Counted from the stretch's first letter, positions 10,462 through 58,179 are shown. The stretch: 64,000 bases of DNA from Asaia bogorensis (GCA_945901855.1 CAMDLT010000020.1:2066-66065); one strand, 5' to 3'. The notes: a model not told the origin generated them from the letters alone. A program made the numbers and translations.

Positions 10462-11184
10462 ATGGCATCCACATATTCGGACGCGGTGCGCGAACAGCTG
10501 TTGGGCGTAAGCACCGCGACCTTGTGCACGGCCTTGTTCAAGCGCGGTCTGCGCAACCAGTTTGTCCAGGATGTGCGCCCGCTCGCATCCGATTTGCCCA
10601 ATATGGTCGGGCCTGCCTACACGCTGCGCTACATCCCCGCGCGCGAAGACTTGAACACCATCGCCGTGTTCCAGGATCGCGCGCACCCGCAGCGCAAGGC
10701 GGTCGAAGAATGTCCGCCCGGTTCCGTGCTGGTTATCGACAGTCGCAAGGATGCGCGCGCAGCGTCGGCGGGCGGAATTCTGGTCTCGCGCTTGATGAAG
10801 CGCGGCGTTGCCGGCGTCGTGACCGATGGCGGCTTTCGCGATTCGCCCGAGATCGCGGCGCTGCCTTTTCCTGCCTACCACCATCGTCCGTCCGCGCCGA
10901 CGAACCTGACGCTGCACCAGGCCGTCGATATCGGCCTGCCGATCGCCTGCGGCGATGCGGCCGTGTGGCCAGGCGACATAATTGTCGGCGATCGCGAGGG
11001 CGTGATCGTGATCCCCGCGCACCTCGCAGCGGAGATCGCCGCCGAGGCTGTCGAGATGACGGCGTTCGAGGATTTTGTGTTCGAAAAGATTCTCGAAGGC
11101 CGCTCGATTATCGGTCTCTATCCGCCGACCGACGACATTTCGAAAACCGATTTTGCGGCCTGGCGCATCGCCAAGAACCGCTAG
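10462..11184 (+). CDS. RraA-fold protein (RraA / 4-hydroxy-4-methyl-2-oxoglutarate aldolase / oxaloacetate decarboxylase family).
   Basis: 240 aa. The central region GSVLVID...ASAGGILVSRLMKRGVAGVVTDGGFRDSPEIAAL is typical of the RraA/MenG-like swivelling beta/beta/alpha fold. It lies between two enolase-superfamily genes. Confidence 0.7.
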   Translation: MASTYSDAVREQLLGVSTATLCTALFKRGLRNQFVQDVRPLASDLPNMVGPAYTLRYIPAREDLNTIAVFQDRAHPQRKAVEECPPGSVLVIDSRKDARAASAGGILVSRLMKRGVAGVVTDGGFRDSPEIAALPFPAYHHRPSAPTNLTLHQAVDIGLPIACGDAAVWPGDIIVGDREGVIVIPAHLAAEIAAEAVEMTAFEDFVFEKILEGRSIIGLYPPTDDISKTDFAAWRIAKNR

Positions 11185-12356
11185 ACGTAGCCCGTGCTGC
11201 CGTCGGGTTTGGTCGGTACCTTGCGCTCCCAGTGGACATATCCGTCGCTCTTCAGCACATCTTCGTCGATTTCGACGCCCCAGCCCGGCCGCGCGGGCCG
11301 CAATTCCAGGTGACCGTCTTTGGGCAGATACGGATCGCGAACATAGGGCGCGCCCGCGGAAGGATCGGCGACTTTGTCGTAGTTCGAGCCATGCGGCAGG
11401 CGGTATTCCAGAATTTTGAAATTCGGCAAAGCCGCGCAGAAATGCAGGTTGACCGCAGTGGCAAGCGGACCCATCGGATTGTGGGGGGCTACCGTCACGT
11501 AGTGCGCTTCGGCCAGGGCTGCGATCTTGCGCATCTCCGACAAGCCGCCGACCACGCAGATATCGGGCTGCACGATGTCGGCGCCGCGCACCTGCAGCAG
11601 GCGCAGAAACTCGAAGCGATTATAGAGGCATTCGCCCGTGGCAAGCGGGCAATCGAGCCGCGCTTTCAGAGCACCCCATGCGTCGATGTTTTCCGGCCGG
11701 ATCGGTTCCTCGAAAAACAGCGGATCGTAGGGAGCGAGCGCGTTGCCAAGCTGCACGGCCTGGATCGGTTCGAAGATTTTGGCGTGCGCGTCGAACGCTA
11801 TTTCGTAGTCGGCGCGAACGGTCTCGCGCAGTTTCGAGAAATAAGCCGCGCTTTCGCGCACGACATCGCCCCAGCGCTGGCGGTGAATGTCGCCGCGATA
11901 GGGGCTGAGCTTGAATGCGGTGAGCCCCCAATCGCCGGCAAGCTGGTCGAACGTGTCGCGCGCGATCAGCGGGTCCGGGGCGGTATAGACCCCCGCATAG
12001 ACGCGTACGCGGTCGCGGACATGGCCGCCCAGCAGCTGGTAGACGGGCACACCCAGCGCCTTGGCCGAAACATCCCACAAGCAATGATCGATCGCCGAAA
12101 TCGCCGCCAGGCCCAAGGCGCCGGGCGGAAACCGGCTCTGTTGCAACAAATAGAGGTTCAGATACTCGATACGTCGCGGGTCTTGGCCCGCCAAAAAGAG
12201 CGCCAGATACTCAAGCAGCGGGATCAAGGCGCGATCGGGGCCGTGATTGTAGCACTCCCCCCATCCGGTGATGCCCTCGTCGGTGTCGATCGCAACCAGT
12301 ACGCGCGGCCGATCCTTGTCGCGTGTCATGAAGGCCCTGAGGCGTTGAATTTTCAT
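11181..12356 (-). CDS. Enolase-superfamily sugar-acid dehydratase, DgoD/ManD family, second paralog.
   Basis: 391 aa from MKIQRLRAF. AIDTDEGITGWGECYN, CLWDVSAKALGVPVYQLLGG, IVQPDICVVGGLSE. It is convergent with the preceding two genes. It is the 3' part of 821-aa shadow ORF 11181..13646. Confidence 0.8.
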   Translation of the reverse strand: MKIQRLRAFMTRDKDRPRVLVAIDTDEGITGWGECYNHGPDRALIPLLEYLALFLAGQDPRRIEYLNLYLLQQSRFPPGALGLAAISAIDHCLWDVSAKALGVPVYQLLGGHVRDRVRVYAGVYTAPDPLIARDTFDQLAGDWGLTAFKLSPYRGDIHRQRWGDVVRESAAYFSKLRETVRADYEIAFDAHAKIFEPIQAVQLGNALAPYDPLFFEEPIRPENIDAWGALKARLDCPLATGECLYNRFEFLRLLQVRGADIVQPDICVVGGLSEMRKIAALAEAHYVTVAPHNPMGPLATAVNLHFCAALPNFKILEYRLPHGSNYDKVADPSAGAPYVRDPYLPKDGHLELRPARPGWGVEIDEDVLKSDGYVHWERKVPTKPDGSTGYV

Positions 12357-12431
12357 AAATCGATTTTGCACCGCGCGCGGGCGGAAGGCAACTTCCCGCG
12401 CGCACAGGAACGGGATAATCTTTCTGCAGTC

Positions 12432-13796
12432 ATGCCGTTCTCGCCGCTCGATTCCCAGATCTTTGGCCCGCTTTTTGTGCCCGATGCGATGGTTGCCGTT
12501 TTCGGCGACGACGCTTTGCTGGCAGCGATGCTGCGCGCCGAAGCCGCGCTGGCAAAATGCCAGGCGCGTTTGGGACTTGTCCCGCCAAGTTTGGCAACCG
12601 CGATCGAGGCAATCGCGCCCGCCGCCTTTGACAAGGCGGCGCTGGGGGCCGCGACGGCGCTGGCGGGTGTGCCGACAATCCCCTTCGTGAAGGCGCTGCA
12701 AAAACTGCTGCCTGCCGACCTCGAACCCCATCTTCATCTTGGCGCAACTTCGCAGGACATTCTCGATACCGGCCTTGCGCTGCAGATGACGGTTGCGTTC
12801 GATCTGCTGGCGGCCGATCTGGCGGATTTGCTTGCGGCACTCGTGCGCCGCGCGCGCCGCCATGCGGATATGCCGTGCATCGCGCGCACCTACGGCCAAC
12901 ACGCCGCGCCGATCTCGTTCGGCTTCAAGGTTGCCGTGTGGCTCGACGGCATTTGCGATGCAGCCGCCGAGCTTGCGCATCGCCGCGAGATCACGTGCCG
13001 AGCTCAGCTCGGCGGGCCGGTCGGCACGCTTGCGGCTTTTGGCGACAAAGGTCCTGCGCTGTTGGCCGACTTCGCGGCCGAGCTTGGACTTGGCGTGCCG
13101 ACGATCGCGTGGCACGCCAGCCGCGTCAATTTGGTCGGGACCGCCCAGTGGCTTGCAGTTCTCGCGGGCACATGCGCCAAAATGGCGGGCGATGTCGTGG
13201 CGCTCGCCTCGAGCGAGGTCGGCGAGGCAAGTGAACCGCATGTGCCTGGGCGTGGCGGATCGTCGGCGATGCCGCACAAGCGCAACCCGATCGCTGCCGT
13301 TGCTATTTTGGCGAATGCGCAGGCGGCCGCTGGACTGGCTGCGGGATTGAGCGGCAGCTTGGTCGCGGCGCACGAGCGTCCGGCAGGCGCGTGGCATGCT
13401 GAGTGGCATGCGATCGCATCGCTTTTCGGGTGCGCTGCGGGTGCGCTTGCGCATGCGCGCGCGCTGGCCGAAGGGCTTGCCATCGATCCAGCAGCGATGG
13501 CCCGCAATGTGGATCTGACGCGCGGGCTCGTTTATGCCGACGCGGCAGCCGCGGCGCTGGCGCCGACGCTCGGTCGCAGCGCCGCACATGCTTGCGTCGA
13601 AGCAGCGGCAGACAGCGTTCGGCGGACGGGCACGACGCTGCAGCACGCATTGGCAGCCTCCCAGACGGTGCTTTCGTCCGCGGAACTTGCCGCGATTTTC
13701 GATCCGTCGGCAGCGGTAGCTGCTGCTGCCCGTTGGGTCGAGCCAGTCGCACGACGCGCTGATGCGCTTGCAGCCCGGCTGTGCGTGCGGGCATAG
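12432..13796 (+). CDS. pcaB: 3-carboxy-cis,cis-muconate cycloisomerase (fumarate-lyase class I family).
   Basis: 454 aa from MPFSPLDSQIFGPLF. HLGATSQDILDT and the lyase-I signature GSSAMPHKRNP. It is the 3' part of shadow ORF 10524..13796. Confidence 0.8.
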   Translation: MPFSPLDSQIFGPLFVPDAMVAVFGDDALLAAMLRAEAALAKCQARLGLVPPSLATAIEAIAPAAFDKAALGAATALAGVPTIPFVKALQKLLPADLEPHLHLGATSQDILDTGLALQMTVAFDLLAADLADLLAALVRRARRHADMPCIARTYGQHAAPISFGFKVAVWLDGICDAAAELAHRREITCRAQLGGPVGTLAAFGDKGPALLADFAAELGLGVPTIAWHASRVNLVGTAQWLAVLAGTCAKMAGDVVALASSEVGEASEPHVPGRGGSSAMPHKRNPIAAVAILANAQAAAGLAAGLSGSLVAAHERPAGAWHAEWHAIASLFGCAAGALAHARALAEGLAIDPAAMARNVDLTRGLVYADAAAAALAPTLGRSAAHACVEAAADSVRRTGTTLQHALAASQTVLSSAELAAIFDPSAAVAAAARWVEPVARRADALAARLCVRA

Positions 13797-18040: not shown

Positions 18041-19030
18041 CTATGTGTCCTTCGCAAAGTCCTTGCAGCCGGGATCAAAGTCATTCGCCTTATGCGGCCA
18101 GATCCGGTCGCTAGGTTTGTGTTTCTGCGGTGGGCGGTCGAGACCGTCGAAAAAAACCAAACCTGTCTGCGCCTCGATCCAGGCAACGCTTTCCAGGAAC
18201 CGCTCGGGGTTCTGCGCGCGTTTGGGATCGAGATAGCTATTGTCTTTTTGCGGAAATACAAAGGCGAGCGCTTGGTGGCTATTGCCGTCGTACCGCACGA
18301 CGACCTTGAACAGATAGTCGGGGATGGCGACAAGTGGCTGGCGCGCGCGTCCTTCGGCGGCGGTGCCGTTGTCCGCCCGATCGATCGGCGCAGCAAGTCG
18401 TTCGCGTGGAGCCCGGTTCGAAAAAATTGGTCCTGCGATCACCCAGAGATCGCCCGACTGGTTGGCCCAAGCTCCCGTCCGGCACTCGAGATCGAGCCAG
18501 CCGATACGATTGAACCGGCGACGTTGCGGAACCGCATTCACCGTATTATGCGTGAATTCGGCCGGTTCGGCGCCGGTCCGTTCGATTAGATTCTTGGCCG
18601 CCAGATGGCCGCGTTCGTACCAATCCGCGCGCGCGTGCGCGGCTTCGTCCTTGTCGGTGCGATAGCTGCCATGCGTCGCTGCCAAGCCCTCGCGGTAGAG
18701 CGTTTCGACGGTGTACCAATTGCGCGGGCGCTGATTGCCCAGGACGTGGTTCTCGTTCGAGGCGACGATACGGTGGGCAACAAAGGTTGGGATACGCCAC
18801 GGCTCTCCCGCAGGCGGCGCGCTTTTGAGGCTGACGACAAACGAGTCAAAACAGATTTGGATGTCGTAGGGCGCCACAAGTTTTGGATTATGGCTTTCGG
18901 GGTCCGCTGTATTGCAGTCACGCACGCCCGCTTTTTGATCGGCTTCGGCTGGTTTGAACACCCGCGTCTGGGCTTGGCCAGCCGACACCGCCCAGAAAAG
19001 AACCAGGGCTAAGCATAATTTCGAAACCAT
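18041..19030 (-). CDS. Secreted DNA/RNA non-specific endonuclease (Serratia NucA/EndoG-like His-Me finger family).
   Basis: Signal peptide MVSKLCLALVLFWAVSAGQA. Catalytic YERGHLAAKNL (a DRGH-like motif) with a downstream N residue. 329 aa. Confidence 0.7.
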   Translation of the reverse strand: MVSKLCLALVLFWAVSAGQAQTRVFKPAEADQKAGVRDCNTADPESHNPKLVAPYDIQICFDSFVVSLKSAPPAGEPWRIPTFVAHRIVASNENHVLGNQRPRNWYTVETLYREGLAATHGSYRTDKDEAAHARADWYERGHLAAKNLIERTGAEPAEFTHNTVNAVPQRRRFNRIGWLDLECRTGAWANQSGDLWVIAGPIFSNRAPRERLAAPIDRADNGTAAEGRARQPLVAIPDYLFKVVVRYDGNSHQALAFVFPQKDNSYLDPKRAQNPERFLESVAWIEAQTGLVFFDGLDRPPQKHKPSDRIWPHKANDFDPGCKDFAKDT

Positions 19031-19163: not shown

Positions 19164-20468
19164 TTAGCTGCCCCAAGTCTCGGCGGTCGTCGAGGCGTAC
19201 CAGCCTTCGGCATAGTGGGCTTCCTGCAAGCGGAACTGTACGGCATTGGCGGGCGCACGCGGGCTCACGCCGCCGGCCCCTTGCACAGCGACGATGCCTT
19301 GGATTGTTGGACGATATACGTCTGCAACCGAAATTCCATAGTCCGGCGCGATCAGCGAGTAGCAGGTATTGGCAAAAACAGCTCCCGGCGTCGGCTGGCC
19401 GTTGAGAGCGGCGGCGATCGCTTTGGCGACGAACTTGCCTTGGCTGGAGGCGGCAAAACCGGATTTGGGCATCGCGCCTGCGATCGCCGCATCGCCGATG
19501 ACGTACACGTCTTTGGCGCGTGTCGATTCGAACGTGAAAGGATCGACCGGGCACCAGCCGGCCATTGCGCCCTCGGTGGCAGCGAGCCCAGCATCGCGCG
19601 CGATGCTGCCCGCATATTGCGGCGGTACGATATTGGCGACCGACGCCTTGTGAACCTCGCCGAACTCGGAGGTTAGCGTGAGTTCGGCGGGATCGACGCG
19701 CACGACCTTGCCGTCTTTGCCAAGCGGAACCCATTCGATCATGGCGCCGTATTGGCTTTGCCAGCCGTCCTGGAACAGGCCCTGTTTGGAGAACGCGTCC
19801 TTGGAGTCGAGCGCCAGGATCTTGGAGCGCGGTTTATTTTGTTTCAGATAGTGCGCCACCATCGCGATGCGCTCGTAAGGGCCGGGCGGGCACCTGAACG
19901 GGTTGTTGGGAATCGACATCACGAATGTGCCGCCGTCGGGCATCGCTTCCAACTGGCGACGCAGCAGCACGGTTTGGGTACCTGCCTGCCAGGCGTGTGG
20001 CATGCGCTCAACTGCGGATTGCGTGTACCCTTCGAGGGCACCGAAGCGGATATCGATGCCCGGCGAAAGTACGAGCCGGTCGTAGCGCACGACATTGCCG
20101 CCGCTGGTACGGACGGTTTTCGCGCTCGTATCGATAGCGACCGCGCTTTCGCGGATATGGCGCACGCCATGTTTGCCCGTCAGGGCCGCATAATTGTGCG
20201 TGATATCGGTCATCTGTTTGAAGCCCGATAGCACATAGTTGGAAAATGGGCAGGTCTGGAACTCTGATTTGGGCTCGATCAAGGTAACGGAGAGGCTTGG
20301 GTCTTCGAGGCGCAAAAATTTAGCGGTCGTGGCTCCGCCAAAGCCGCCGCCGACGACAACAACGCGCGCTTTGCCTGCCGGCTCCGATTGGATGGCGCAG
20401 GCCGACAGAGCCGTCGTGGCGAGTACGGAACCTGCAAAGGCGCGACGCGAGAGCATTAATTTGGCCAT
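19164..20468 (-). CDS. fccB: Flavocytochrome c sulfide dehydrogenase, flavoprotein subunit (FccB/SoxF family), Tat-exported.
   Basis: Tat motif SRRAFAGSVLATTALSA. FAD-binding VVVVGGGFGGATTAKFL. Family pattern throughout. The start is taken at the internal M (MAKLML). Confidence 0.8.
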   Translation of the reverse strand: MAKLMLSRRAFAGSVLATTALSACAIQSEPAGKARVVVVGGGFGGATTAKFLRLEDPSLSVTLIEPKSEFQTCPFSNYVLSGFKQMTDITHNYAALTGKHGVRHIRESAVAIDTSAKTVRTSGGNVVRYDRLVLSPGIDIRFGALEGYTQSAVERMPHAWQAGTQTVLLRRQLEAMPDGGTFVMSIPNNPFRCPPGPYERIAMVAHYLKQNKPRSKILALDSKDAFSKQGLFQDGWQSQYGAMIEWVPLGKDGKVVRVDPAELTLTSEFGEVHKASVANIVPPQYAGSIARDAGLAATEGAMAGWCPVDPFTFESTRAKDVYVIGDAAIAGAMPKSGFAASSQGKFVAKAIAAALNGQPTPGAVFANTCYSLIAPDYGISVADVYRPTIQGIVAVQGAGGVSPRAPANAVQFRLQEAHYAEGWYASTTAETWGS

Positions 20469-20482
20469 TTGATTGTCTCCCC

Positions 20483-20803
20483 TCAGCGCCACTTTGCGGC
20501 GATTTCGCGCGCCATGGCTGCAATTTCGTCGTCGCCAAAACCCTTGGCATGGCGATTCATGATTGTGCCCATGCGCCGGTCATTTTTGAAATCGAGCATC
20601 GCTTGGCGCAACGTCGCTTCGTCCTGACCCGCGAGGGCAGGGATGGCGCCTGTTGACCGGCCATTTTGGCCATGGCAGCCCGAACAAGTGGCAATCAACA
20701 CATCGGGCGCAACGGACGATGCGGTTTGAGCAGCGGCCGGGAGCGCGAGGTTCGAGCCAGTCAAAGCGACAAAAAGCGTTGCAATTTTGAGCGCGTGTTT
20801 CAT
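20483..20803 (-). CDS. fccA: Monoheme cytochrome c; likely the small subunit partner of the sulfide dehydrogenase (FccA/SoxE-like).
   Basis: 106 aa with a signal peptide and a single CSGCH heme-binding motif. It sits immediately upstream of, and co-oriented with, fccB. Confidence 0.7.
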   Translation of the reverse strand: MKHALKIATLFVALTGSNLALPAAAQTASSVAPDVLIATCSGCHGQNGRSTGAIPALAGQDEATLRQAMLDFKNDRRMGTIMNRHAKGFGDDEIAAMAREIAAKWR

Positions 20804-20878
20804 GGGGGGACCCTATCGCATTGGTTTTGTTATTGGGTAAAAGGGTACACTATGCCGACATTGCAGGGCAAGTACGCC

Positions 20879-21385
20879 TTAACTGAACCATTCGACCAGC
20901 CAAAAACCCAAACCTGCATAGCTTCCGTTTGCCACGAGCGCGCCTGCGATCAAAAGCAAAATTCCATCGACAGGGTGTTTAGAAAAACTTAACCGGACGA
21001 AATACACGACCAGGGCAAGCGCCAAGGCTGCCGGCGTCGCAAGCGCCATCGCAACGCCGTTTGGAATTGGCGCTGCGCCGAATGCAGCGCAAAATCCGAG
21101 GACCAGGGCAACCCATAGCGGCCGCAGGCGCCGTGGCCCGAATGCGCCAGTTGCGAGCAGCCCTGCACCGGCCAAGCACATTCCCGCTGCCAGCGTGATC
21201 CAGCCGGACGCTCGCGGCCAGTGCGCGCCGACAGTATCGAGAACGACAAAGGCTGCGCCGAAGCCAAAGGCAAGTGTCCCTGCAGTAACGGCCAATCGTC
21301 GGCTGCCTTGCGGATCAAGCGCCTGCAAGATCAAAAAAAAGAGCGGAACAAGTGGCAACGAGATTATGCCGAAATGCATCGACAA
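20879..21385 (-). CDS. Hypothetical integral membrane protein.
   Basis: 168 aa, about 5 predicted TM helices, no recognisable motif. Upstream of and co-oriented with fccAB. Confidence 0.45.
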   Translation of the reverse strand: MSMHFGIISLPLVPLFFLILQALDPQGSRRLAVTAGTLAFGFGAAFVVLDTVGAHWPRASGWITLAAGMCLAGAGLLATGAFGPRRLRPLWVALVLGFCAAFGAAPIPNGVAMALATPAALALALVVYFVRLSFSKHPVDGILLLIAGALVANGSYAGLGFWLVEWFS

Positions 21386-21496
21386 GCACTAGCCGGTGCC
21401 AGCGCAGGGCGCAAGACCGGTTCCGCGCGTTGACGGGTTGCCTGCGCAATGCCAGTGTCGCAACGTCAGTTTTTTGCTCACGAAGGGAGTCTTGAA

Positions 21497-22519
21497 ATGA
21501 TTAGAGTTGCACATTTGGCCGTGGCCGCGGCTTCGTTTGCGATGTTCGCGTCGAGTGCGGTTGCACAAGCGCCGACACCCGTCAAATTTGCGCTCGATTG
21601 GGCTCTTCAGGGCAACCATGCGGTTTTCACGATGGCGCTCGACAAAGGCCACTATAGCCGCGAAGGGCTCGCCGTTACGATGGATCGCGGCTTCGGTTCG
21701 GGCGATACGGTTACCAAGGTCGCGTCCGGGGCCTACGATATCGGTTATGCCGACCTCAACACCGTCATTCCGTTCAATGCCAATCCCGCCAATACGAACA
21801 AGATTACAGGCGTGCTGTTGGTGATGGACCAGTCGCTGGCCGCCGTCATTCTGCGCAAAGGCACGGTTGCCAATCCCAAAGGGCTCGAGGGGCTGAAGCT
21901 TGCGGCACCCGAAGCCGATGCCGGGCGCATGCTGTTTCCGGCATTTGCGCGCGCGCAGGGCATCGATCCCGCGCGCATCAATTGGCAGACCGTTACGCCG
22001 CAATTGCGCGAAACGCTGCTCGTCCAGCGCCAGGTCGATGGCGTGACCGGGTTCATCTCCACCAGCGTGTTCAACATCAAGATGGCGGGCGTGCAGCCGT
22101 CGGATCTGATGGTCTATCGCTACAACGATTTTGGCGTCGATCTGCTGGGCTCGGCGCTGATCGTCAGCCAATCCTTCGCCGAGCGCAATCCCGAGACGGT
22201 TCGCCGTTTTGTGCGCGCGTCGCTTGCGGGTGTCCGCGACGCGTTGGCCGACCCAAAAGGCGGCATGGCGCAGTTGAAGCAGCGCGACCCGCTGTTCAAT
22301 GAAGCCATTGAACTCGAGCGCTTCGAAATGGTGCGCGATCTGACGATGCTGACCGACAACGTGAAGCGCAATGGTCTGTCGGCCGTGCCGGCCGCGCGCT
22401 TGGCGGCGTCGGTGGCCACGGTCGCGGAAGCCTACAACGTCGCGGGCCGCGTCAAGCCGGAAGAGGTCTATACCGAGCGTTTCTTGCCGTCGGCGCCCGA
22501 ACGTCGCATCTCACCCTGA
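21497..22519 (+). CDS. NMT1/THI5-like (nitrate/sulfonate/bicarbonate-type) periplasmic substrate-binding protein; orphan.
   Basis: Signal peptide MIRVAHLAVAAASFAMFASSAVAQA. An SsuA/TauA-like fold pattern. No permease or ATPase genes adjacent. Confidence 0.65.
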   Translation: MIRVAHLAVAAASFAMFASSAVAQAPTPVKFALDWALQGNHAVFTMALDKGHYSREGLAVTMDRGFGSGDTVTKVASGAYDIGYADLNTVIPFNANPANTNKITGVLLVMDQSLAAVILRKGTVANPKGLEGLKLAAPEADAGRMLFPAFARAQGIDPARINWQTVTPQLRETLLVQRQVDGVTGFISTSVFNIKMAGVQPSDLMVYRYNDFGVDLLGSALIVSQSFAERNPETVRRFVRASLAGVRDALADPKGGMAQLKQRDPLFNEAIELERFEMVRDLTMLTDNVKRNGLSAVPAARLAASVATVAEAYNVAGRVKPEEVYTERFLPSAPERRISP

Positions 22520-22645
22520 TCGGTTGGGCGGTTCCCCAAGATACTGCCGGATCGAACTGTTGTAACCCTGCGGCGTCGCAAGTGCGGCGATGTCGCAGGG
22601 TTCGAGCGGACCAGTCGCCGCCGCCGTAGATAGCTGCCGCATATT

Positions 22646-23749
22646 TCACGTGCGTGCGGCAAGTGCCTTGAAGGCGGGAACGAATGCGCCGTGTTCGAGA
22701 TACTTCATCCCGAACAAGCCGCCGCAGACGATCGATCCAAACGCCAGCAGCGAGCCCAGCGCCAGCGTGGAGAGGCCGGTGACGCCTTGGCCAATCGTGC
22801 AGCCAAGGGCCAGTACGCCGCCCGTTCCCATCAAGGCTGCACCCGCCAGATGGCGCAGCATATCGTCGGTACCGGCAAAACTCTCGATCCGAAATTCGCG
22901 TGCCGTCTTGGCGGCGACAAATGCGCCGAACACGACACCAAATACGCTAGCCACGCCAAACCCGATTTTGGCCCCGGTCCAGGTCATCAGATAGATTAGC
23001 GTATCGCCGATCGGCGCGACAAAGGTGAACGAGGCAAGGGGTGACGGTTCGAAATCGTCGTTGCCCGCAATGCCGGTCGCGTACCAGCCCGCGACAGTCA
23101 GCAGACCGATGCCGATTCCGGCCGCAATGTTGCGCGGGCTCTTGCAAAAACTTGAATCCTTGAAGCAAACCCAAGCGAGGAAGGCGATGACAAGAACGCT
23201 TGCCGTGCGTTGTGCAAATTGAGTTTCCAGGCCGGTCGCGGTTACGATCAGCGCGGGCAAGAGTTGGGTCTGGGCACCCAGCGTTCGGAGATCGAGATTG
23301 GTCGGCTCGATCGTCGCAATTCGGCCCGCCGCGATCAAACCGCGTAAGGTCATGTAGGCGAAGAGCCCGAGCACGATCATCACCAGCAGACTTTTGAGAT
23401 TCCCCGCCCCCAATCGGACGAGCGTCTTGCTGCCGCAACCGCCTGCCAGCGTCATGCCGAAGCCGAACATGAGGCCGCCGACAATGGCGCCAAGCCAGCC
23501 GAAATTCGGCGTGGCATAGATCGTCTTGCCAAGATCGACAAGGCCAAGGGCGCCGAACGTTTGCGTGCCTGCGACGGCGACGGCGATCGCCAGCAGCCAG
23601 GCACGAAAGCGCCTGAAATCTCCCAAGAGGGCGATGTCGGAAATTGCGCCCATGGTGCAGAAGTTTGTCCGATGGGCAAGAACGCCAAACCCGATCCCGA
23701 GCCCGAAGCCCCACATCGCAACAATTTGGTGGACAGGAAGGTCGGACAT
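22646..23749 (-). CDS. yeeE: YeeE/YedE-family inner-membrane transporter (TsuA-like thiosulfate/sulfur-compound transporter); two-repeat form.
   Basis: 367 aa. Two repeats each carry the conserved Cys motif (TLAGGCGSK and ALGCTIGQG). Polytopic. Confidence 0.8.
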   Translation of the reverse strand: MSDLPVHQIVAMWGFGLGIGFGVLAHRTNFCTMGAISDIALLGDFRRFRAWLLAIAVAVAGTQTFGALGLVDLGKTIYATPNFGWLGAIVGGLMFGFGMTLAGGCGSKTLVRLGAGNLKSLLVMIVLGLFAYMTLRGLIAAGRIATIEPTNLDLRTLGAQTQLLPALIVTATGLETQFAQRTASVLVIAFLAWVCFKDSSFCKSPRNIAAGIGIGLLTVAGWYATGIAGNDDFEPSPLASFTFVAPIGDTLIYLMTWTGAKIGFGVASVFGVVFGAFVAAKTAREFRIESFAGTDDMLRHLAGAALMGTGGVLALGCTIGQGVTGLSTLALGSLLAFGSIVCGGLFGMKYLEHGAFVPAFKALAART

Positions 23750-23875
23750 TTGGGGTTTTCCAGCTTGGGTTCGACGGGTCTTTAGAAAAGCTCAGGGGTA
23801 TCCTGAAAATGTAGCGCTTGCTTGGTCGAGGGCTCAACTCGTAGGGTCTGCTCCTTCAACAAGGATGCATCACAT

Positions 23876-24103
23876 ATGTCGGTTACCGTTCTCGATCTCA
23901 AGGGTCTCAATTGTCCGCTGCCGGTTTTGCGGACGAAAAAAGCGATGGCGAGCCTGCCTGCGGGCGCGGCGCTGCAAGTGCTGGCAACAGACCCTGGCGC
24001 CGTCAAGGATTTTGAAGCCCTGTGCCTGACGATCGGTGCTAAACTTTCGAATGTCGCTGAACAGGACGGCGTCTACGTGTTCGATATTCAAAAGAGCGCC
24101 TGA
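23876..24103 (+). CDS. tusA: TusA-like sulfur-carrier protein.
   Basis: 75 aa. LDLKGLNCPLPVLRTKKAM is the canonical CPxP TusA motif. Divergent from yeeE. Confidence 0.75.
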   Translation: MSVTVLDLKGLNCPLPVLRTKKAMASLPAGAALQVLATDPGAVKDFEALCLTIGAKLSNVAEQDGVYVFDIQKSA

Positions 24104-24117
24104 AACCGGTTCGTGGA

Positions 24118-25020
24118 TTGATCGACAGGAAATCGCACAACGAAGGCATCTGGTTGCTCGCTGCGTTGGCGCTCCTTTGGGGCGCCAATTGGCCTGCGAT
24201 GAAACTTGCCGTTGGCGAGATCGGCCCGTGGACCTTTCGTACAATTTGTCTTTATGTCGGCGCTGGCGGCCTATTTGCCGTGGCGCTTGTCCGACGCATT
24301 CCCATGGGATTGCCGCGGGGGCGTATCGCGGTTTTTGCCGCGACGTCGTTTTTGAACGTGACGGTGTGGCATGTGACATCGGCTTATGGCCTTACGTTGC
24401 TCGCGGCAGGGCGCGCTGTTTTGGTGGCATTCACAATGCCGCTTTGGGCCGCCTTGTTCGGCGCGTTGTTCTTCGGCGACAAGTTTACACAGCGCAAGGT
24501 CGTGGCCTTGAGCTTGGGGCTCGTGGGGTTAGGTTTTTTGGCGCTGCCCGCAAGCGATACGCTGGGCAGTTCGCCTGCCGGACTGGGGCTGATGCTGGCG
24601 GCTGCGGTCGGCTGGGGCGCGGGAACCGTGTGGCTCAAGGCCTCGCGCTTTGAAATGTCGGCCGTGACGCTGACTGCCTGGCAACTGGCCCTCGGCGGCG
24701 TACCGGTCATCGTTGGCATGCTGGCGCTCGAGGTTGCGGGTATCGGCGGCGGAACCGTGCTTAAAAACGACTCTCCGTCGCTGGCGGGCTTGGTTGGTTT
24801 GATCTATGCCGCGACTGTGCCCATGGTTTTCTGCAATTGGGCATGGTTCCGGGCACTGGAGATTTTGCCGGCGTCTCTGGCCTCGATCGGCACGCTGGCG
24901 GTCCCGGTCGTCGGCGTTCTGGCGTCGGCGCTGTTGCTGGGGGAGACGGTCGGCTGGTCGGAAATGATGGCGCTTGTGTGCGTCGTTGCAGCCCTTGCTT
25001 TGGCGTTGCTGCAGTTCTGA
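24118..25020 (+). CDS. DMT-superfamily (EamA-type) transporter.
   Basis: 300 aa, 10 TM helices, two EamA repeats. Confidence 0.7.
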   Translation: MIDRKSHNEGIWLLAALALLWGANWPAMKLAVGEIGPWTFRTICLYVGAGGLFAVALVRRIPMGLPRGRIAVFAATSFLNVTVWHVTSAYGLTLLAAGRAVLVAFTMPLWAALFGALFFGDKFTQRKVVALSLGLVGLGFLALPASDTLGSSPAGLGLMLAAAVGWGAGTVWLKASRFEMSAVTLTAWQLALGGVPVIVGMLALEVAGIGGGTVLKNDSPSLAGLVGLIYAATVPMVFCNWAWFRALEILPASLASIGTLAVPVVGVLASALLLGETVGWSEMMALVCVVAALALALLQF

Positions 25021-25022
25021 CC

Positions 25023-25631
25023 TTAGTCGGCGACCACGGCAGCTTTGCGGGCGGCTTTCCGGGTTTGGTGCCGATGCACGAGGAAAACCAAGCCCGTTGA
25101 AACCACGAAGACGCCCAACATGACATAGAGGAAGGAATGGACGATATCGCCGATCATGGCGTCGAGCGCGCGTCCAAACAGATAACCGAAACCCGCAAAC
25201 GTGGATGCCCAGACGAATGCCGCGACGAAATTGAGGGCGGCAAATCGCAGCGGGTTGATGCGCGCGACGCCCATCGCAAATGACGCAAGGTTCCGTACGC
25301 CATAAATGAACCGGAACGACAGGATGAACCACGTATCGTAGCGCTTGAGCAGGTCGAGTGCGCCGTCAACGCCCGCGCGCCATTTGGGACGCTTTTCGAG
25401 CAGAGCGCTGCCGTATCGCCGACCGATCCAGAACCACATTTGGTCGCCGGAGAAACTTCCGAACCAAGCCGTGAGCAGCAAAACCCAAATATTCAGCGTA
25501 TCTTGGGCGGCAGCCGCACCGGCAAAAATGACGAAGGTTTCGCCTTCCAAAAACGTCCAAACAAAAATTACCGCGTAAATCAGGACGCCGTATTGTGCAA
25601 CGAGGCTTTGAACATCGGTCGAGGGTTCCAA
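25023..25631 (-). CDS. DedA/SNARE-associated family membrane protein.
   Basis: 202 aa with the DedA-like pattern (...FLEGETFVIFAG...GSALLEKRPKW...). Confidence 0.65.
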   Translation of the reverse strand: MEPSTDVQSLVAQYGVLIYAVIFVWTFLEGETFVIFAGAAAAQDTLNIWVLLLTAWFGSFSGDQMWFWIGRRYGSALLEKRPKWRAGVDGALDLLKRYDTWFILSFRFIYGVRNLASFAMGVARINPLRFAALNFVAAFVWASTFAGFGYLFGRALDAMIGDIVHSFLYVMLGVFVVSTGLVFLVHRHQTRKAARKAAVVAD

Positions 25632-25999: not shown

Positions 26000-26413
26000 T
26001 TACGGCGAAGATTTAACCGGTACGGCGCTGAATGCAGGCGCCTCGGAGCACTCGGTCACGCCGCCCAGCGTGCGGATGCATCGATAGCGCGCATTGGGAT
26101 CGATTTTGGCGACCGGAAACTCGGGTTCGTTGAAGCGCGCCATTTGTTCGCAGATCAGACGTCGGTCGCCGGTTAAGAACATACCGTCGCAGCGTCCCGG
26201 CAAAAAATTCGGTCCGACTAAAATCGCGGCGCCAACCACGCCCGGCGTCACGATGCTTTGCACGTAAGGGGCAGCAAACGTGCTGACTTTGTCAGGTACC
26301 TTCGATAGCGGAGGGCTGCCGTGAACCGAAGGCAGTTTGGTGCAAGCCGCCGCGAATAGGGCAGCGCCAGCGACTAAACAAACGATCCGAATGGAGCGAT
26401 TTATCTTCAACAT
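26000..26413 (-). CDS. Secreted protein / possible lipoprotein, unknown function.
   Basis: 137 aa. N-terminus MLKINRSIRIVCLVAGAALFAAAC with a Cys after the hydrophobic stretch (weak lipobox). Preceded by a very AT-rich upstream region (26414-26466). Confidence 0.5.
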   Translation of the reverse strand: MLKINRSIRIVCLVAGAALFAAACTKLPSVHGSPPLSKVPDKVSTFAAPYVQSIVTPGVVGAAILVGPNFLPGRCDGMFLTGDRRLICEQMARFNEPEFPVAKIDPNARYRCIRTLGGVTECSEAPAFSAVPVKSSP

Positions 26414-26466: not shown

Positions 26467-27246
26467 TCAAGATTCCCGTCGATAATCATCCAAATCTCTG
26501 AAGAATCTGGAAAAAGCCGATGCCGGTGTCACACCGGTAGCAGCCTCGAAGCGCACAACTTCTTGGAGCGTAAGCCGCTTCACGGGGGCAAAAAGCGTAT
26601 CGAAGATCGCCAAGAAATCGCTTTTGGCGAACTGAGCAACATCGAGACCATCGCCGATTTGGACATATTTGTTGGGGGCAAGGCCGATCGATGTCTGCTT
26701 GTGCTGCATGATGCGAAAGAACCATTCGCGGCGCGTGTCGAAGCGCTGGAACGATTGCGCAATCCGCACGAGCGTCAACCAGAAAATCGTCTGGGCGCGC
26801 GGATCCGAATAAAACGCGTCCCAACCAAAATCGTCGCCGCCTTTGTCGCGCGTTTCCTCCAGCACTTGCGCACAGGCGGCGTTCCATTCGCCTTCTCTCT
26901 CGCCGACCAATGCCTGGACGAAGAAAAAGAAATTGTGGAGCAGACTGCGGTCGAGCTGCGCGGACGCAAAAAAATCGTCAAGCGGATGCACGATCAAACG
27001 GCCGAACGCATTGACGCGACGATGCTGGTTCTGCGACTGGGCAATTGCCGCAACGATTTGGACGAAGACGGCGCGGTAGAAATTTTCGACTTCGCCGGCG
27101 TTTTTCATCGCATCGCCGATACGCGCGAGCTCGTCGTGGCCGACAGTACCGCCGTTTTTTGCGGCGGTTTCCTGGGCGGTCTTCACGAATGCGTCGAGCA
27201 TCGTGGTTGCCGCATGTCGGATCAGTTGGGGGCCTTTTGAAAACAT
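26467..27246 (-). CDS. Hypothetical protein, 259 aa, Trp/Phe-rich, no recognisable domain.
   Basis: I chose the minus strand over the codon-aligned plus-strand ORF 26440..27240 because the plus-strand translation is Arg/Glu-skewed in the way antisense shadows typically are. The strand call is uncertain. Confidence 0.45.
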   Translation of the reverse strand: MFSKGPQLIRHAATTMLDAFVKTAQETAAKNGGTVGHDELARIGDAMKNAGEVENFYRAVFVQIVAAIAQSQNQHRRVNAFGRLIVHPLDDFFASAQLDRSLLHNFFFFVQALVGEREGEWNAACAQVLEETRDKGGDDFGWDAFYSDPRAQTIFWLTLVRIAQSFQRFDTRREWFFRIMQHKQTSIGLAPNKYVQIGDGLDVAQFAKSDFLAIFDTLFAPVKRLTLQEVVRFEAATGVTPASAFSRFFRDLDDYRRES

Positions 27247-48235: not shown

Positions 48236-49063
48236 ATGGCTGCCAAACGCTCGAAACTTTACCAATCCGCCGCGAACGATCCAGTTTTGGTCGACCGGGC
48301 GGTCGCTGGGGATCCGCGCATTGTGACCGTAATTTTGAATCGCCCGGAAAAGCTCAACGCGATTTCCTCGGCGATGTGGGCGAAGTTGGGCGAAACGATG
48401 CGGGCCCTGAATGCCGAGCCGGACATCGGCTGCATCGTGCTGCGCGGTGCGGGCGACAAGGCTTTCGGCCCCGGAGCGGACATCTCCGAATTCGAGAAGA
48501 CGCGCAAAACGACCAAGCTTGCGATCGCGTACGGACGCACGATGCACGCGACGCTCGCGGCGGTCGGCGAATGCCGTCACCCTGTCGTGGCGCTGATCAA
48601 GGGGCTTTGCGTCGGCGGGTCGCTCGAAATTGCGAGCATGTGCGATCTGCGCATTGCGGGCGAAAGCGCGCGCTTCGGCGTGCCGATCAACCGCATCGGC
48701 GTGATCATGGCCTATCCCGAACTTTCCGCCCTGGTCGGTTTGGTGGGCGAGGCGGTCGCCAAAGAAATCCTGCTCGAGGCGCGCGTATTCGGCGCTGCGG
48801 AAGCCAAAGACAAGGGCCTGGTCACGCGCGTGGTCGCGGATGCGAATGTCGAGGAAGAAGCGTATCTGGCGGCCGGGCGGATCGCTGCGGGCGCGCCGCT
48901 GTCGAACCGCTGGCACAAAAAATTTGCGCGTCGGCTGCGCTCGCCCAAACCCCTGACGCGCGCCGAGTATCTCGAAGGATTCGCGAACTGCGATACCAAG
49001 GACTATCTCGAAGGCTACCGCGCGTTCCTTGAGAAGCGGCGCCCGAAGTTCGAGGGCCGCTAG
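48236..49063 (+). CDS. Enoyl-CoA hydratase/isomerase (crotonase) family protein.
   Basis: 275 aa from MAAKRSKLYQ. The oxyanion-hole region is LRGAGDKAFGPGADISEF. The crotonase fold pattern continues to the C-terminus. Confidence 0.8.
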   Translation: MAAKRSKLYQSAANDPVLVDRAVAGDPRIVTVILNRPEKLNAISSAMWAKLGETMRALNAEPDIGCIVLRGAGDKAFGPGADISEFEKTRKTTKLAIAYGRTMHATLAAVGECRHPVVALIKGLCVGGSLEIASMCDLRIAGESARFGVPINRIGVIMAYPELSALVGLVGEAVAKEILLEARVFGAAEAKDKGLVTRVVADANVEEEAYLAAGRIAAGAPLSNRWHKKFARRLRSPKPLTRAEYLEGFANCDTKDYLEGYRAFLEKRRPKFEGR

Positions 49064-49064
49064 G

Positions 49065-50258
49065 GTGCCGGGCGCGCTTGCAGGTCTGCGCATCGTCGAG
49101 CTTGCGCATATCATGGCCGGACCCGTCGCAGGCTTGATGCTGGCCGACATGGGGGCCGAAATCGTCAAGGTTGAAAAGCTGCCGGGCGGCGACGACACGC
49201 GCCGCATGGTGCCGCCGCGCGTCGGCGCGGAAAGCGCCGCCTATCTGATGATGAATCGCAACAAGCGCGGTATTGCTCTCGATCTCAAAACGCCGGGCGG
49301 CAAAGCGGCGTTGCGCCGTCTGATCGAGCGCGCCGACGTGCTGATCGAAAACTACCGTGCGGGCACGCTCGAAAAACTCGGGTTCGGCTATGCGCAGGTG
49401 CGCGCATGGGCTCCGCGGCTTGTTTATTGTTCGCTGTCCGGCTTCGGGCGCACGGGACCGTACGCTGGACGCGGCGGGTTCGATTTGGTCGCGCAGGGAA
49501 TGTCGGGCTTGATGAGCGTTACCGGCGAGGGGCCGGGACGCGCGCCCGTTAAAGTTGGCGCGCCGGTCACCGACATCACATCCGGGATTCTCGCCGCGAT
49601 GGGAATCCTTGGGGCCCTGCAGGCGCGCGCGCGGACGGGGCAGGGGCAGCTTGTCGAAACCTCGCTGTTTGAAGCGGGGATCGTGCAGACATATTGGCAG
49701 TCGGCTATCGCCCTTGCGACGGGCACGTCGCCCGGACCCCTTGGTTCCGCGCATCCGTTGAACGCGCCCTACCAAGCCTTCGAAACGGCCGACGGGTGGA
49801 TCAATGTGGGCGCCTCGAACCAAGCGACGTGGTTGAAATTGGTCGCAGCGCTCGAGGCTCCCGCGTTGGACGACGATCCGCGCTTTGCGAGCAATGCCGC
49901 GCGCATGGCCAATCTGCCGGCCCTTGTCGAAATTCTAGCGCCGCTATTCAAAGGGCGGACGACATCCGCGTGGCTGGATATCTTCGACGCCGTCAACATG
50001 CCGGCCGGTCCGGTGCTGTCGATCGGCGAGATGCTGGCCGATCCGCAGACCCTCGCGCGTGCGATGGTCGTGGAAACCGACCATGCAACGCTCGGCCCTG
50101 TCAAAACGCTGGGCGCACCCGTCAAGTTTTCGGATACGCCCAGTGCGATAACGCGCGCCGCCCCCGTGCTGGGCCAGCATACAAACGACGTGCTGGTGGA
50201 GCTTGGCTATTCCAACGCGGAAATCGAGGACTTGCGCGCGAGCGGTGCGGTGGGTTAG
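49065..50258 (+). CDS. Family-III CoA-transferase (CaiB/BaiF/Frc family).
   Basis: About 397 aa with a probable GTG start 1 nt after the hydratase stop. LRIVELAHIMAGPVAGLMLADMGAEIVKVE is the family N-terminal signature. An upstream overlapping ATG at 49029 is also possible. Confidence 0.8.
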   Translation: MPGALAGLRIVELAHIMAGPVAGLMLADMGAEIVKVEKLPGGDDTRRMVPPRVGAESAAYLMMNRNKRGIALDLKTPGGKAALRRLIERADVLIENYRAGTLEKLGFGYAQVRAWAPRLVYCSLSGFGRTGPYAGRGGFDLVAQGMSGLMSVTGEGPGRAPVKVGAPVTDITSGILAAMGILGALQARARTGQGQLVETSLFEAGIVQTYWQSAIALATGTSPGPLGSAHPLNAPYQAFETADGWINVGASNQATWLKLVAALEAPALDDDPRFASNAARMANLPALVEILAPLFKGRTTSAWLDIFDAVNMPAGPVLSIGEMLADPQTLARAMVVETDHATLGPVKTLGAPVKFSDTPSAITRAAPVLGQHTNDVLVELGYSNAEIEDLRASGAVG

Positions 50259-56520: not shown

Positions 56521-58179
56521 TCAAAAAATTCCGTCGATTTCGCCCGCTGGCGTCAGGCCGATGGCTTCGGCGGCGGGGATGCGCGGCAGGCCCGGCATGG
56601 TCATCACATCGCCTGCAAGCGCCACGATGAATCCCGCACCGGCCGATAGACGGATTTCGCGTACCGGCAAATCGTGGCCGGTGGGAGCGCCCTTCAACTC
56701 GGGATCGGCGGCAAACGAGTACTGGGTCTTGGCCATGCAGATAGGCAGATGCCCGAAACCCGCTTTTTCGAGCGCGGCCAGACGCTTTGCCGCAGCACCC
56801 GAAAAACTGACGGTGCCGGCACGATAGATCTCGCGTGCGATCGTCTCGATTTTTGCCTTCAGCGGCATCGCATCGGGATAGAGCGGCGCGTATTTTCCTG
56901 CACCTGCGTCGATCGCGGCGACGGCTGCGCGCGCGAGATCTTCCGCACCCGCGCCGCCCTTCGCCCAATGCTGCGCGCGAATGGCTTTTGTGCCGACTGT
57001 TGCGCACGCGGCTTCGATGGCGCGCCATTCGGCATCGGTATCGCTTGTGAAGGCGTTGATCGCGACCAAAACCGGCAAGCCGAATTTCTTCAAGTTTTCG
57101 ACGTGGCGCAAAAGATTGCCGAGGCCCCGTTCGACGGCCGCGACATCTTCGACGCCGAGCGCTTTTGAATCCGCGCCGCCCTGGAGCTTGAGCGCGCGCA
57201 CGGTCGCCACGACGACGGCCAGATCCGGCGACAGCCCGGCCTGACGGCATTTGATGTCGAGGAACTTCTCGGCGCCCAAATCGGCGCCGAAGCCCGCCTC
57301 GGTGACCGTGTAATCGGCGAGCCCGAGCGCCATTGTCGTTGCAATGGCGGAGTTGCAGCCGTGCGCGATGTTCGCAAACGGCCCGCCATGCACGAACACG
57401 GGATTGTTTTCGAGCGTTTGGACGAGATTGGGTTTGATCGCGTCTTTCAGCAACGCAGCCATTGCGCCCGCAGCTTTGAGGTCTGCGACCGTCACGAAGC
57501 TGCCGTCTTTGTTGTCGGCCACGACGATCCTGGCGAGACGCGCTTCAAGGTCCGCGGCGTCTTTGGCCAAGCACAAGATCGCCATCACTTCGGAGGCCGT
57601 CGTGATGTCGAAGCGCGTTTGGCGCGCGGCCCCGTTGCCGGTCCCGAGCCCTGCGACGATATCGCGCAAGGCGCGGTCGTTCATGTCCAGCACGCGCGGC
57701 CACGTCACGCGCTTGGGATCGATAGCTGGCGCCTTCGCCCAGTAGACATGGTTGTCGATCAACGCCGCGAGCAGATTGTGCGCCGAGCCGATTGCGTGGA
57801 TGTCGCCGGTGAAATGCAAGTTGATGTCGGCCATCGGCACGATCTGCGCGTAGCCGCCGCCGGTGGCTCCGCCTTTTTGGCCAAAGCAAGGGCCCAGCGA
57901 CGGTTCGCGCAGACAGATCGCGGTGCGCTTGCCGAGCCGGTTGAGCGCGTCGCCAAGCCCGATGGTCGTCGTCGTTTTGCCTTCCCCGGCTTTGGTGGGG
58001 TTGATCGCGGTGACGAGGATCAGCTTGCCGCGTTTTTTGGCGGCGGGAAGCGCCGCCAAATCGATTTTGGCTTTTGTCTTGCCGTAAAATTCGAGCGCCG
58101 CCTCGGGGATATCGAGTTTGGCGGCGACTGTTGCGAGCGGTGCGAGGGCGGCTTTGCGGGCAATCTCGATATCCGACAT
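56521..58179 (-). CDS. fhs: Formate--tetrahydrofolate ligase.
   Basis: 552 aa. [10 protein letters not shown]...[19 protein letters not shown] and the rest are colinear with Fhs. Confidence 0.85.

Follow-up and report, generated by a model that had tools for sequence, protein, structure and literature searches.

How zero-valent sulfur made in the periplasm reaches the cytoplasm is an open question, as is the purpose of flavocytochrome c sulfide dehydrogenase (FccAB) in vivo, and both are raised by a locus at positions 19,164 to 24,103 of a 64,000-nucleotide stretch of Asaia bogorensis DNA (GCA_945901855.1, CAMDLT010000020.1:2066-66065; the whole 64-kb stretch is hereafter called the window), in which the fccAB genes lie near genes for a YeeE/YedE-family channel and a TusA-like sulfur carrier. 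A Sox-independent route, in which sulfide is oxidized in the periplasm by FccAB and sulfane sulfur is then imported through a SoxT-like YeeE and passed to TusA, was considered to have about an even chance of being correct. The component families are well known and no new chemistry is implied; what is new is that a SoxT-like channel, usually accompanied by Sox genes, occurs here with FccAB, and the locus offers a concrete candidate, open to genetic tests, for the import step that is missing after FccAB. An earlier interpretation made without database searches (the sequence-only reading) had described a minimal sulfide and thiosulfate handling kit. Its open reading frames (ORFs) were all present on the strands that it gave, with agreeing domains (ORF calling and Pfam), and the sulfide half of the kit stands; the thiosulfate half, built on a TsuA-type transporter, gives way to the reading of a SoxT-like sulfane sulfur importer.

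The flavoprotein gene fccB was located at 19164-20468 on the minus strand and encodes 434 amino acids (aa); its maximal ORF (19164-20492) reaches upstream to a GTG at 20492, and the ATG at 20468 is the likelier start, giving the 434-aa length called in relatives. The product matched PF21706 (FCSD_central; 3e-51, 172.9 bits) and PF09242 (FCSD-flav_bind; 1e-22, 80.7 bits), both above the gathering cut-offs, and its best match in the PDB was the flavocytochrome c of Thioalkalivibrio paradoxus (5n1t_A, 1e-136), followed by those of Allochromatium vinosum (1fcd_A, 1e-121) and Thermochromatium tepidum (3vrd_B). In the alignment to 1fcd_A, Cys73, Cys193 and Cys369 of FccB were aligned with Cys42, Cys161 and Cys337 of 1FCD, of which the first forms the thioether link to flavin adenine dinucleotide (FAD) and the other two are the redox-active pair, and the window protein thus keeps all three, as in A. 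vinosum.

The cytochrome gene fccA (20483-20803, minus strand) ends with a stop codon 14 nt ahead of the fccB ATG and encodes a monohaem c-type subunit of 106 aa with the haem-binding motif CSGCH, a Sec-type leader and a match to the Pfam family Cytochrom_C (1.2e-5). Its best PDB match was 5n1t_B, the 102-aa monohaem cytochrome of T. paradoxus (1.5e-16), so that both subunits of the window have their closest match in that enzyme, which also shares a monohaem cytochrome of about 100 aa and a twin-arginine translocation (Tat) signal; next came 3vrd_A and 1fcd_C, the dihaem cytochromes of T. tepidum and A. vinosum (174 aa), from which the window subunit differs in having a single haem. These matches and residues give fccAB the look of a true flavocytochrome c sulfide dehydrogenase. 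The Tat-exported flavoprotein paired with a CSGCH monohaem cytochrome that the sequence-only reading had proposed was in this way borne out, and the loss of catalytic cysteines from FccB that it had named as one danger to its proposal was not found.

The N-terminus of FccB reads MAKLMLSRRAFAGSVLATTALSA|C and combines a Tat signal (SRRAF) with a lipobox (LSA|C24) about 10 residues ahead of the Rossmann GGG motif, both elements lying within residues 1-25 (20394-20468). FccB is therefore probably a Tat-exported, lipid-anchored lipoprotein, as far as can be told from its leader. The same combination was kept in all 17 listed FccB relatives of at least 51% identity except L040 and L058, the lipobox being LSA|C, LSG|C or LVG|C (loci L001-L012, L023, L034, L038, L081 and L088-L091), and it spans loci of Tagaea, Telmatospirillum, Phaeospirillum/Paramagnetospirillum and Acetobacteraceae. 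It was not seen in Paracoccus SoxF, which differs from the window FccB in lacking the lipobox, or in more distant FccB-like genes. The window FccB differs likewise from that of T. paradoxus, since a lipobox cysteine directly follows the Tat signal in the window and no cysteine is seen in the part of the 5n1t_A N-terminus that aligns.

Ahead of fccA on the same strand lies a gene for a small polytopic membrane protein, a position in which known FccAB systems differ from the window, the gene being restricted to this lineage. The maximal ORF (20879-21385, minus strand) has 168 aa and matched nothing in Pfam or NCBIfam, in agreement with its earlier description as an unknown membrane protein; gene calls in relatives make Met3 the likely start (20879-21379, about 166 aa). 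Only 5 homologues were found among 5.8 billion proteins. In the contigs that were read (P0121, P0125 and L004/L048), the gene stands directly ahead of cytC-fccB, and the proteins share the C-terminal motif FSK(R/H)P(V/L/I)DGILLLIAG. The small membrane protein belongs to the fcc unit. An AlphaFold 2 (AF2) model of it computed from 6 sequences had a predicted local distance difference test score (pLDDT) of 57, too low for comparison of folds.

The channel gene yeeE (22646-23749, minus strand) encodes 367 aa matching PF04143 (Sulf_transp; 2e-68, 231 bits). Its product was compared with sequences of the TsuA/TsuB thiosulfate system (E. coli and Spirochaeta thermophila; PDB 6leo and 8j4c), with which it shares the Pfam family, three cysteines and an adjoining TusA-fold partner, and with SoxT proteins drawn from Paracoccus, Ruegeria and Rhodobacter plasmids. 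The three cysteines (Cys31, Cys105 and Cys317) correspond to Cys22, Cys91 and Cys293 of StYeeE, in which they are essential, and did not vary in any of the 82 sequences aligned, the references for SoxT1, SoxT2 and TsuA among them. The window protein scored far below the TsuA models of NCBIfam (108.7 bits for NF052577, cut-off 400; 93.9 bits for NF041049, cut-off 645) and was 27-29% identical to E. coli TsuA, 31-34% to SoxT2 of P. pantotrophus, 33-37% to SoxT1 of Ruegeria, Rhodobacter and P. pantotrophus (all in soxS-soxR-soxT arrangements) and 41-44% to a protein of Ralstonia syzygii. A selenium-related YedE/YedF identity was also considered and rejected: YeeE reached only 52 bits against YedE/FdhT (cut-off 350) and 40 bits against TIGR04112 (cut-off 200), and the tusA product 27.7 bits against YedF (cut-off 110).

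A scan of 185,579 species genomes yielded 80 loci with this YeeE, the best 70% identical, all of them from Rhodospirillales-type Alphaproteobacteria or unclassified metagenome-assembled genomes. In Kimura-distance neighbour-joining trees with bootstrap and few reference sequences, the Rhodospirillales YeeE proteins and the Ralstonia protein formed one clade (97.5% bootstrap) apart from SoxT1, SoxT2 and TsuA; the split joining this clade with SoxT1 against SoxT2 plus TsuA received a weak 62% with these few references. A fourth cysteine, Cys195 (23165-23167, in W-V-C-F-K-D, consensus W-x-C-F-K-D), was present in 74 of the 82 sequences and in none of the SoxT1, SoxT2 or TsuA references, and sets the clade apart from SoxT as well. 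Because the protein falls far below the TsuA cut-offs, has only 27-29% identity to TsuA and comes from a clade with members encoded in sox clusters, it is not, on its sequence, a TsuA thiosulfate importer. There is also a likeness to SoxT1A and SoxT1B of Hyphomicrobium denitrificans and to SoxT1 and SoxT2 of Paracoccus: these YeeE-family proteins have about 350 aa and likewise keep the three cysteines, the relatives of the window YeeE are encoded in sox clusters as SoxT is, tusA adjoins the window yeeE as it does soxT1B, and the proposed role is import of periplasm-made sulfur. The window differs from SoxT loci in having no sox genes, no SoxR and no soxS-soxR-soxT arrangement, the partner enzyme being FccAB.

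Divergent from yeeE lies the tusA-like gene (23876-24103, plus strand), which encodes 75 aa with the active-site Cys13 in a CPLP motif; its ORF reaches upstream to a TTG at 23822, and the ATG at 23876, with AAGGA 8-9 nt upstream, is likelier and gives the 75 aa found in L081, L088 and L091. The protein matched PF01206 (9e-20, 70.8 bits) and, in the PDB, 3lvj_C and 1dcj; in alignment with E. coli TusA, CPLP falls on CPEP, and the second cysteine position of that protein is also present. Identity was 32% to E. coli TusA (43 bits) and 25% to TsuB (27 bits), and the score against the NCBIfam TusA equivalog NF001423 was 43.7 bits, below the cut-off of 78. The divergent arrangement of tusA and yeeE is the norm for the YeeE clade: of the 75 loci whose upstream sequence was long enough, 29 have the two side by side and divergent; a single gene separates a divergent pair in 10 of 64, and just 2 of 80 loci have them co-directional. 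YeeE and TusA are real and divergent, as the sequence-only reading had it, and the arrangement proved to be conserved when checked across the clade, not an oddity; the assignment of YeeE to a thiosulfate or TsuA type was not upheld, and its partner is nearer to E. coli TusA than to TsuB. The prospect, raised at the same time, that YeeE would group with non-thiosulfate YedE clades came close to what was found, in that the clade is separate from TsuA, and missed in that its context is sulfur-linked and not that of selenium YedE.

The association of this YeeE with sulfur oxidation genes was examined across the 80 loci. Sox genes were found in 31 of them, in many cases with soxXYZAB immediately downstream of yeeE and a soxS-like gene and tusA on its other side, upstream; 16 had an FccB sharing 45% identity or more, and 42 had sox genes or such an FccB. 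The order tusA-eamA, divergent from yeeE, followed by cytC-fccB occurs in the window, L088, L004, L048 and the Tagaea loci. In L091, a 585-kb contig syntenic with the window on both flanks and with an FccB 93% identical, yeeE, a NUDIX gene, the membrane protein gene, cytC and fccB are abutting and co-directional. Other forms were yeeE-soxY-soxZ-cytC-fccB (L007, L034, L038 and L058; the SoxY and SoxZ proteins of L034 exceed the true SoxY and SoxZ cut-offs), cytC-fccB upstream of yeeE-tusA (L063, Azospirillum halopraeferens), and overlapping cytC-fccB-yeeE followed by a second FccB-like flavoprotein gene and soxY-soxZ on plasmid p402633 of Paracoccus alcaliphilus DSM 8512 (L095, 4389-9169), with no soxXAB within the 13 kb fetched. 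The YeeE of this Rhodobacterales plasmid is only 39% identical to that of the window. In the Tagaea loci the array is kept while the flank beyond fccB differs. The YeeE clade is thus repeatedly linked to fccAB, together with SoxYZ in Magnetospirillum-type bacteria and on the Paracoccus plasmid and free of Sox in the window, and because the association recurs in rearranged forms and in another order, a functional link between yeeE and fccAB is inferred. Since L095 is an annotated plasmid of an isolate, it may serve as an experimental model for coupling between FccAB and YeeE.

The route would proceed as follows. FccB, Tat-exported, probably lipid-anchored and carrying covalent FAD, together with the monohaem cytochrome c would oxidize periplasmic sulfide to zero-valent (polysulfide) sulfur, with electrons passing through cytochrome c to the respiratory chain. 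A sulfane-sulfur species, possibly thiosulfate, would then cross the inner membrane through YeeE by way of its three pore-lining cysteines, and the CPLP cysteine of TusA would take the sulfur and act as a cytoplasmic hub for its further oxidation, assimilation or sensing. Expression of yeeE and of tusA-eamA would be governed by one compact control region of overlapping promoters. The route has a parallel in H. denitrificans, where SoxT1A works downstream of Sox and brings in sulfane sulfur, and not thiosulfate, to be oxidized in the cytoplasm; among dissimilatory sulfur oxidizers it is the one sulfur importer shown by experiment, and for SoxT1B a hand-over to TusA has been proposed (Li et al. 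2024, PMC11582611). It also fits the finding that in Cupriavidus transcripts of yeeE and yedE rise as periplasmic sulfane sulfur accumulates (PMC9959259).

Several observations weigh against this route. The window was searched by tblastn with an annotated Ruegeria plasmid panel and by Pfam scans of the larger ORFs; neither cytoplasmic sulfur-oxidizing genes (sHdr, rDsr, persulfide dioxygenase (PDO) or sulfite dehydrogenase) nor a SoxYZ carrier or SoxR-type regulator was found within the 64 kb. The tblastn panel likewise gave no match there for SoxXYZABC, SoxR, SoxS, SoxVW, PDO, DUF442, PmpAB or SulP, and no sox, dsr or sqr gene is present in the window, as had been noted at the outset. In the window itself, yeeE and fccAB form separate transcription units with a gene on the opposite strand between them, and among the 56 loci with at least 5 kb downstream of yeeE, 30 had neither fccB nor soxYZ directly downstream. 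Conservation of the full array was seen mostly among fairly close relatives with syntenic flanks, and part of it may reflect shared descent and not selection. What FccAB does physiologically is also disputed: Reinartz and co-workers reportedly found in 1998 that fccAB mutants of A. vinosum oxidize sulfide normally. Finally, even where SoxT proteins have been characterized, the species that they transport is unproven (PMC11582611).

The first alternative is assimilatory uptake of thiosulfate by a TsuA/TsuB-like pair, in which TusA would cleave thiosulfate to a persulfide and sulfite and the pair would be uncoupled from the nearby fccAB. Membership of the same protein family, retention of the three channel cysteines and the adjoining TusA-fold partner are all expected of such a pair, and thiosulfate is not excluded as a substrate of SoxT1B (Li et al., PMC11582611). 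The scores of 109 and 94 bits, where the TsuA models require 400 and 645, and the low identity to E. coli TsuA argue otherwise, as do the position of the clade apart from TsuA and the sox or fcc genes in more than half of its loci (42/80). The partner, too, is nearer to TusA than to TsuB, and it is divergent from yeeE, whereas tsuA and tsuB of E. coli are co-directional and co-transcribed. Thiosulfate uptake was accordingly judged unlikely, and not every YeeE-TusA pair should be annotated as a thiosulfate uptake system.

The second alternative concerns control, and the spacer between yeeE and tusA bears on it. In an alignment of 12 spacers, invariant columns were confined to four blocks (AATGTA, CTTGC, CAAC and TA..GT). 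On the plus strand towards tusA these give TTGCTT (23818-23823), 18 nt and TAGGGT (23842-23847), and on the minus strand towards yeeE TTGAGC (reverse complement of 23831-23836), 17 nt and TACATT (reverse complement of 23808-23813). The four blocks may therefore represent two overlapping, face-to-face promoter-like elements in an intergenic core at 23808-23847. This proposal relies on conservation of the spacer across species, because a generic scan for sigma-70 promoters and terminators over 18.9-25.8 kb gave nothing above shuffle expectation in the intergenic regions and did not flag the putative promoters. In the sox-linked loci L008, L010, L020 and L028 an AT-rich palindromic motif (…ATATCATAT…AATATGAATATATAAAAA…) lies between yeeE and tusA and may be a SoxR-type operator.

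On this second alternative, YeeE and TusA would form a SoxT1B-like, low-flux signalling pair that reports external reduced sulfur to an unlinked sulfane-sensing repressor of fccAB. SoxT1B has such a role and adjoins tusA in H. denitrificans (PMC11582611), and the compact shared promoter region suggests tight control. The window has no ArsR- or SoxR-type regulator, the palindromic motif just described is missing from its yeeE-tusA spacer, and in L091 yeeE heads the fccAB gene string, a better fit to a structural role; signalling was for these reasons rated distinctly improbable. That the genes form no functional module at all, standing side by side through common ancestry within one Rhodospirillales lineage and each acting independently, would suit the synteny with L004 and L091, which runs 10 kb past the module on both sides, and the coming and going of accessory genes (those for the solute-binding protein, the NUDIX hydrolase and the luciferase-like monooxygenase) within the array, and is hard to reconcile with linkage of yeeE and fccAB in at least five differently organized loci, one of them a Rhodobacterales plasmid, or with the Tagaea array, kept next to an altered flank, so that little weight was given to it.

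The gap between the fcc unit and yeeE is occupied by a gene for an NMT1/NitT-TauT-type solute-binding protein (SBP; 21497-22519, plus strand; 340 aa with a Sec signal). Its maximal ORF begins at 21449, and gene calls in close relatives make 21497 the likely start. The gene points away from the fcc unit and towards yeeE, from which only 126 bp separate it in the window and in L088. A distance of four kb between the fcc genes and yeeE, as previously stated, is right from start to start; the gap between the fcc unit, which ends at 21385, and the stop codon of yeeE at 22646 is about 1.3 kb, filled by the SBP gene. The protein matched PF09084 (6e-30) and fell far below the cut-offs of SsuA (TIGR01728, 37 bits against 163.5) and TauA (TIGR01729, 32 bits against 304). 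It shares the NMT1 fold and a signal peptide with the ThiY, SsuA and TauA proteins of NitT/TauT ATP-binding cassette (ABC) importers, and differs from them in having no transporter genes nearby: no ABC permease or ATPase gene adjoins it in the window, in keeping with its description as an orphan, and the sole ABC systems in the 64 kb are of the SBP_bac_5 (Opp/Dpp) type, more than 12 kb away. An AF2 model (pLDDT 93) had as its nearest folds 4nmy, 3ix1 and THI5, which bind thiamin, N-formyl-4-amino-5-aminomethyl-2-methylpyrimidine (FAMP) or thiamin pyrimidine and not sulfonates; TauA and SsuA ranked lower, and all matches were at about 20% identity or less.

Orthologues of the SBP at the same position were 82-96% identical across genera (L001-L005, L009, L012, L015, L023, L048 and L081) in which YeeE, TusA and FccB are only 56-84% identical (YeeE 60-70%, FccB 71-84%). 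Beyond these positional orthologues, identity fell to 63% or less and the genomic contexts were others: the family occurs as an orphan (L083, L093) or beside a full NMT1-ATPase-permease operon (Muricoccus, L092), the Muricoccus homologue being 47% identical. The gene is absent from L091, which retains the rest of the module. Recent insertion was rejected as an explanation: L091 alone lacks the gene, although it is a closer relative than the Telmatospirillum and Tagaea loci that carry it, so that loss in L091 is the more parsimonious account, and the SBP is probably ancestral at this position. It is a conserved neighbour that is dispensable for the module, and the sulfur role once ascribed to it is unsupported. 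That it takes the place of SoxYZ, binding the sulfur species released by FccAB, or else an organosulfur compound, and presenting it to YeeE, was regarded as a very long shot; if true, it would be the first binding-protein-dependent transporter of the YeeE family and would complete a Sox-free route from periplasmic sulfide to cytoplasmic TusA.

Other small genes vary within the array. A 129-aa NUDIX hydrolase gene overlaps the yeeE stop in most relatives (L091, 9601-9990; L081, 11025-11414; L004; L048) and is missing from the window and L088. In the Tagaea loci (L081, 8581-9928; L001, 12606-13955), the SBP gene follows, in the same orientation, a gene for a luciferase-like monooxygenase (LLM) and an ORF of 62 aa, which stand in the position taken in the window by the gene for the small membrane protein; identification of the LLM as SsuD was rejected, as it matched generic LLM models only. 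Directly downstream of fccB lies an intact gene for a 329-aa secreted Endonuclease_NS protein (18041-19030, minus strand); the corresponding stretch is called as two ORFs (109 and 181 aa) in the closest relatives, L088 and a 10-kb JGI contig, and only fragments were seen in L091.

On the other side of the locus, eamA (24118-25020, plus strand; EamA/DMT-family permease, 300 aa; PF00892, 2e-32, with weak NCBIfam matches only) starts 15 nt past tusA, and because only this distance separates them the two are probably co-transcribed; the pair is retained in Tagaea and Telmatospirillum relatives. Convergent with eamA is dedA (25023-25631, minus strand; DedA/VTT-family membrane protein, 202 aa; PF09335, 4e-16), which still adjoins tusA in the more distant, eamA-less loci L011 and L040 and may be an associate of the module or a syntenic neighbour only. 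Next to it, two minus-strand ORFs of 137 aa (26000-26413, with a signal-peptide-like N-terminus) and 259 aa (26467-27246) matched no family and stay beside dedA in the Tagaea loci despite the different opposite flank; they may be members of the module or merely syntenic.

No RNA family was found in the whole window by Rfam. Among the larger ORFs in the rest of the window, Pfam scans showed no recognizable sulfur genes; those identified were genes of aromatic-acid and sugar-acid catabolism, CheZ, amino-group metabolism, Opp/Dpp ABC systems and an oxalate/formate set. An 821-aa ORF (11181-13646, minus strand) has MR_MLE enolase-superfamily domains limited to residues 439-797, and its match-free N-terminal 430 residues may result from over-extension of the ORF in GC-rich DNA. 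Within about 11 kb, genes for a family III CoA-transferase (49029-50258, plus strand), formate-tetrahydrofolate ligase and a thiamin pyrophosphate enzyme (56521-58179 and 58181-59869, both minus strand) look like an oxalate and formate utilization set of the frc/oxc type.

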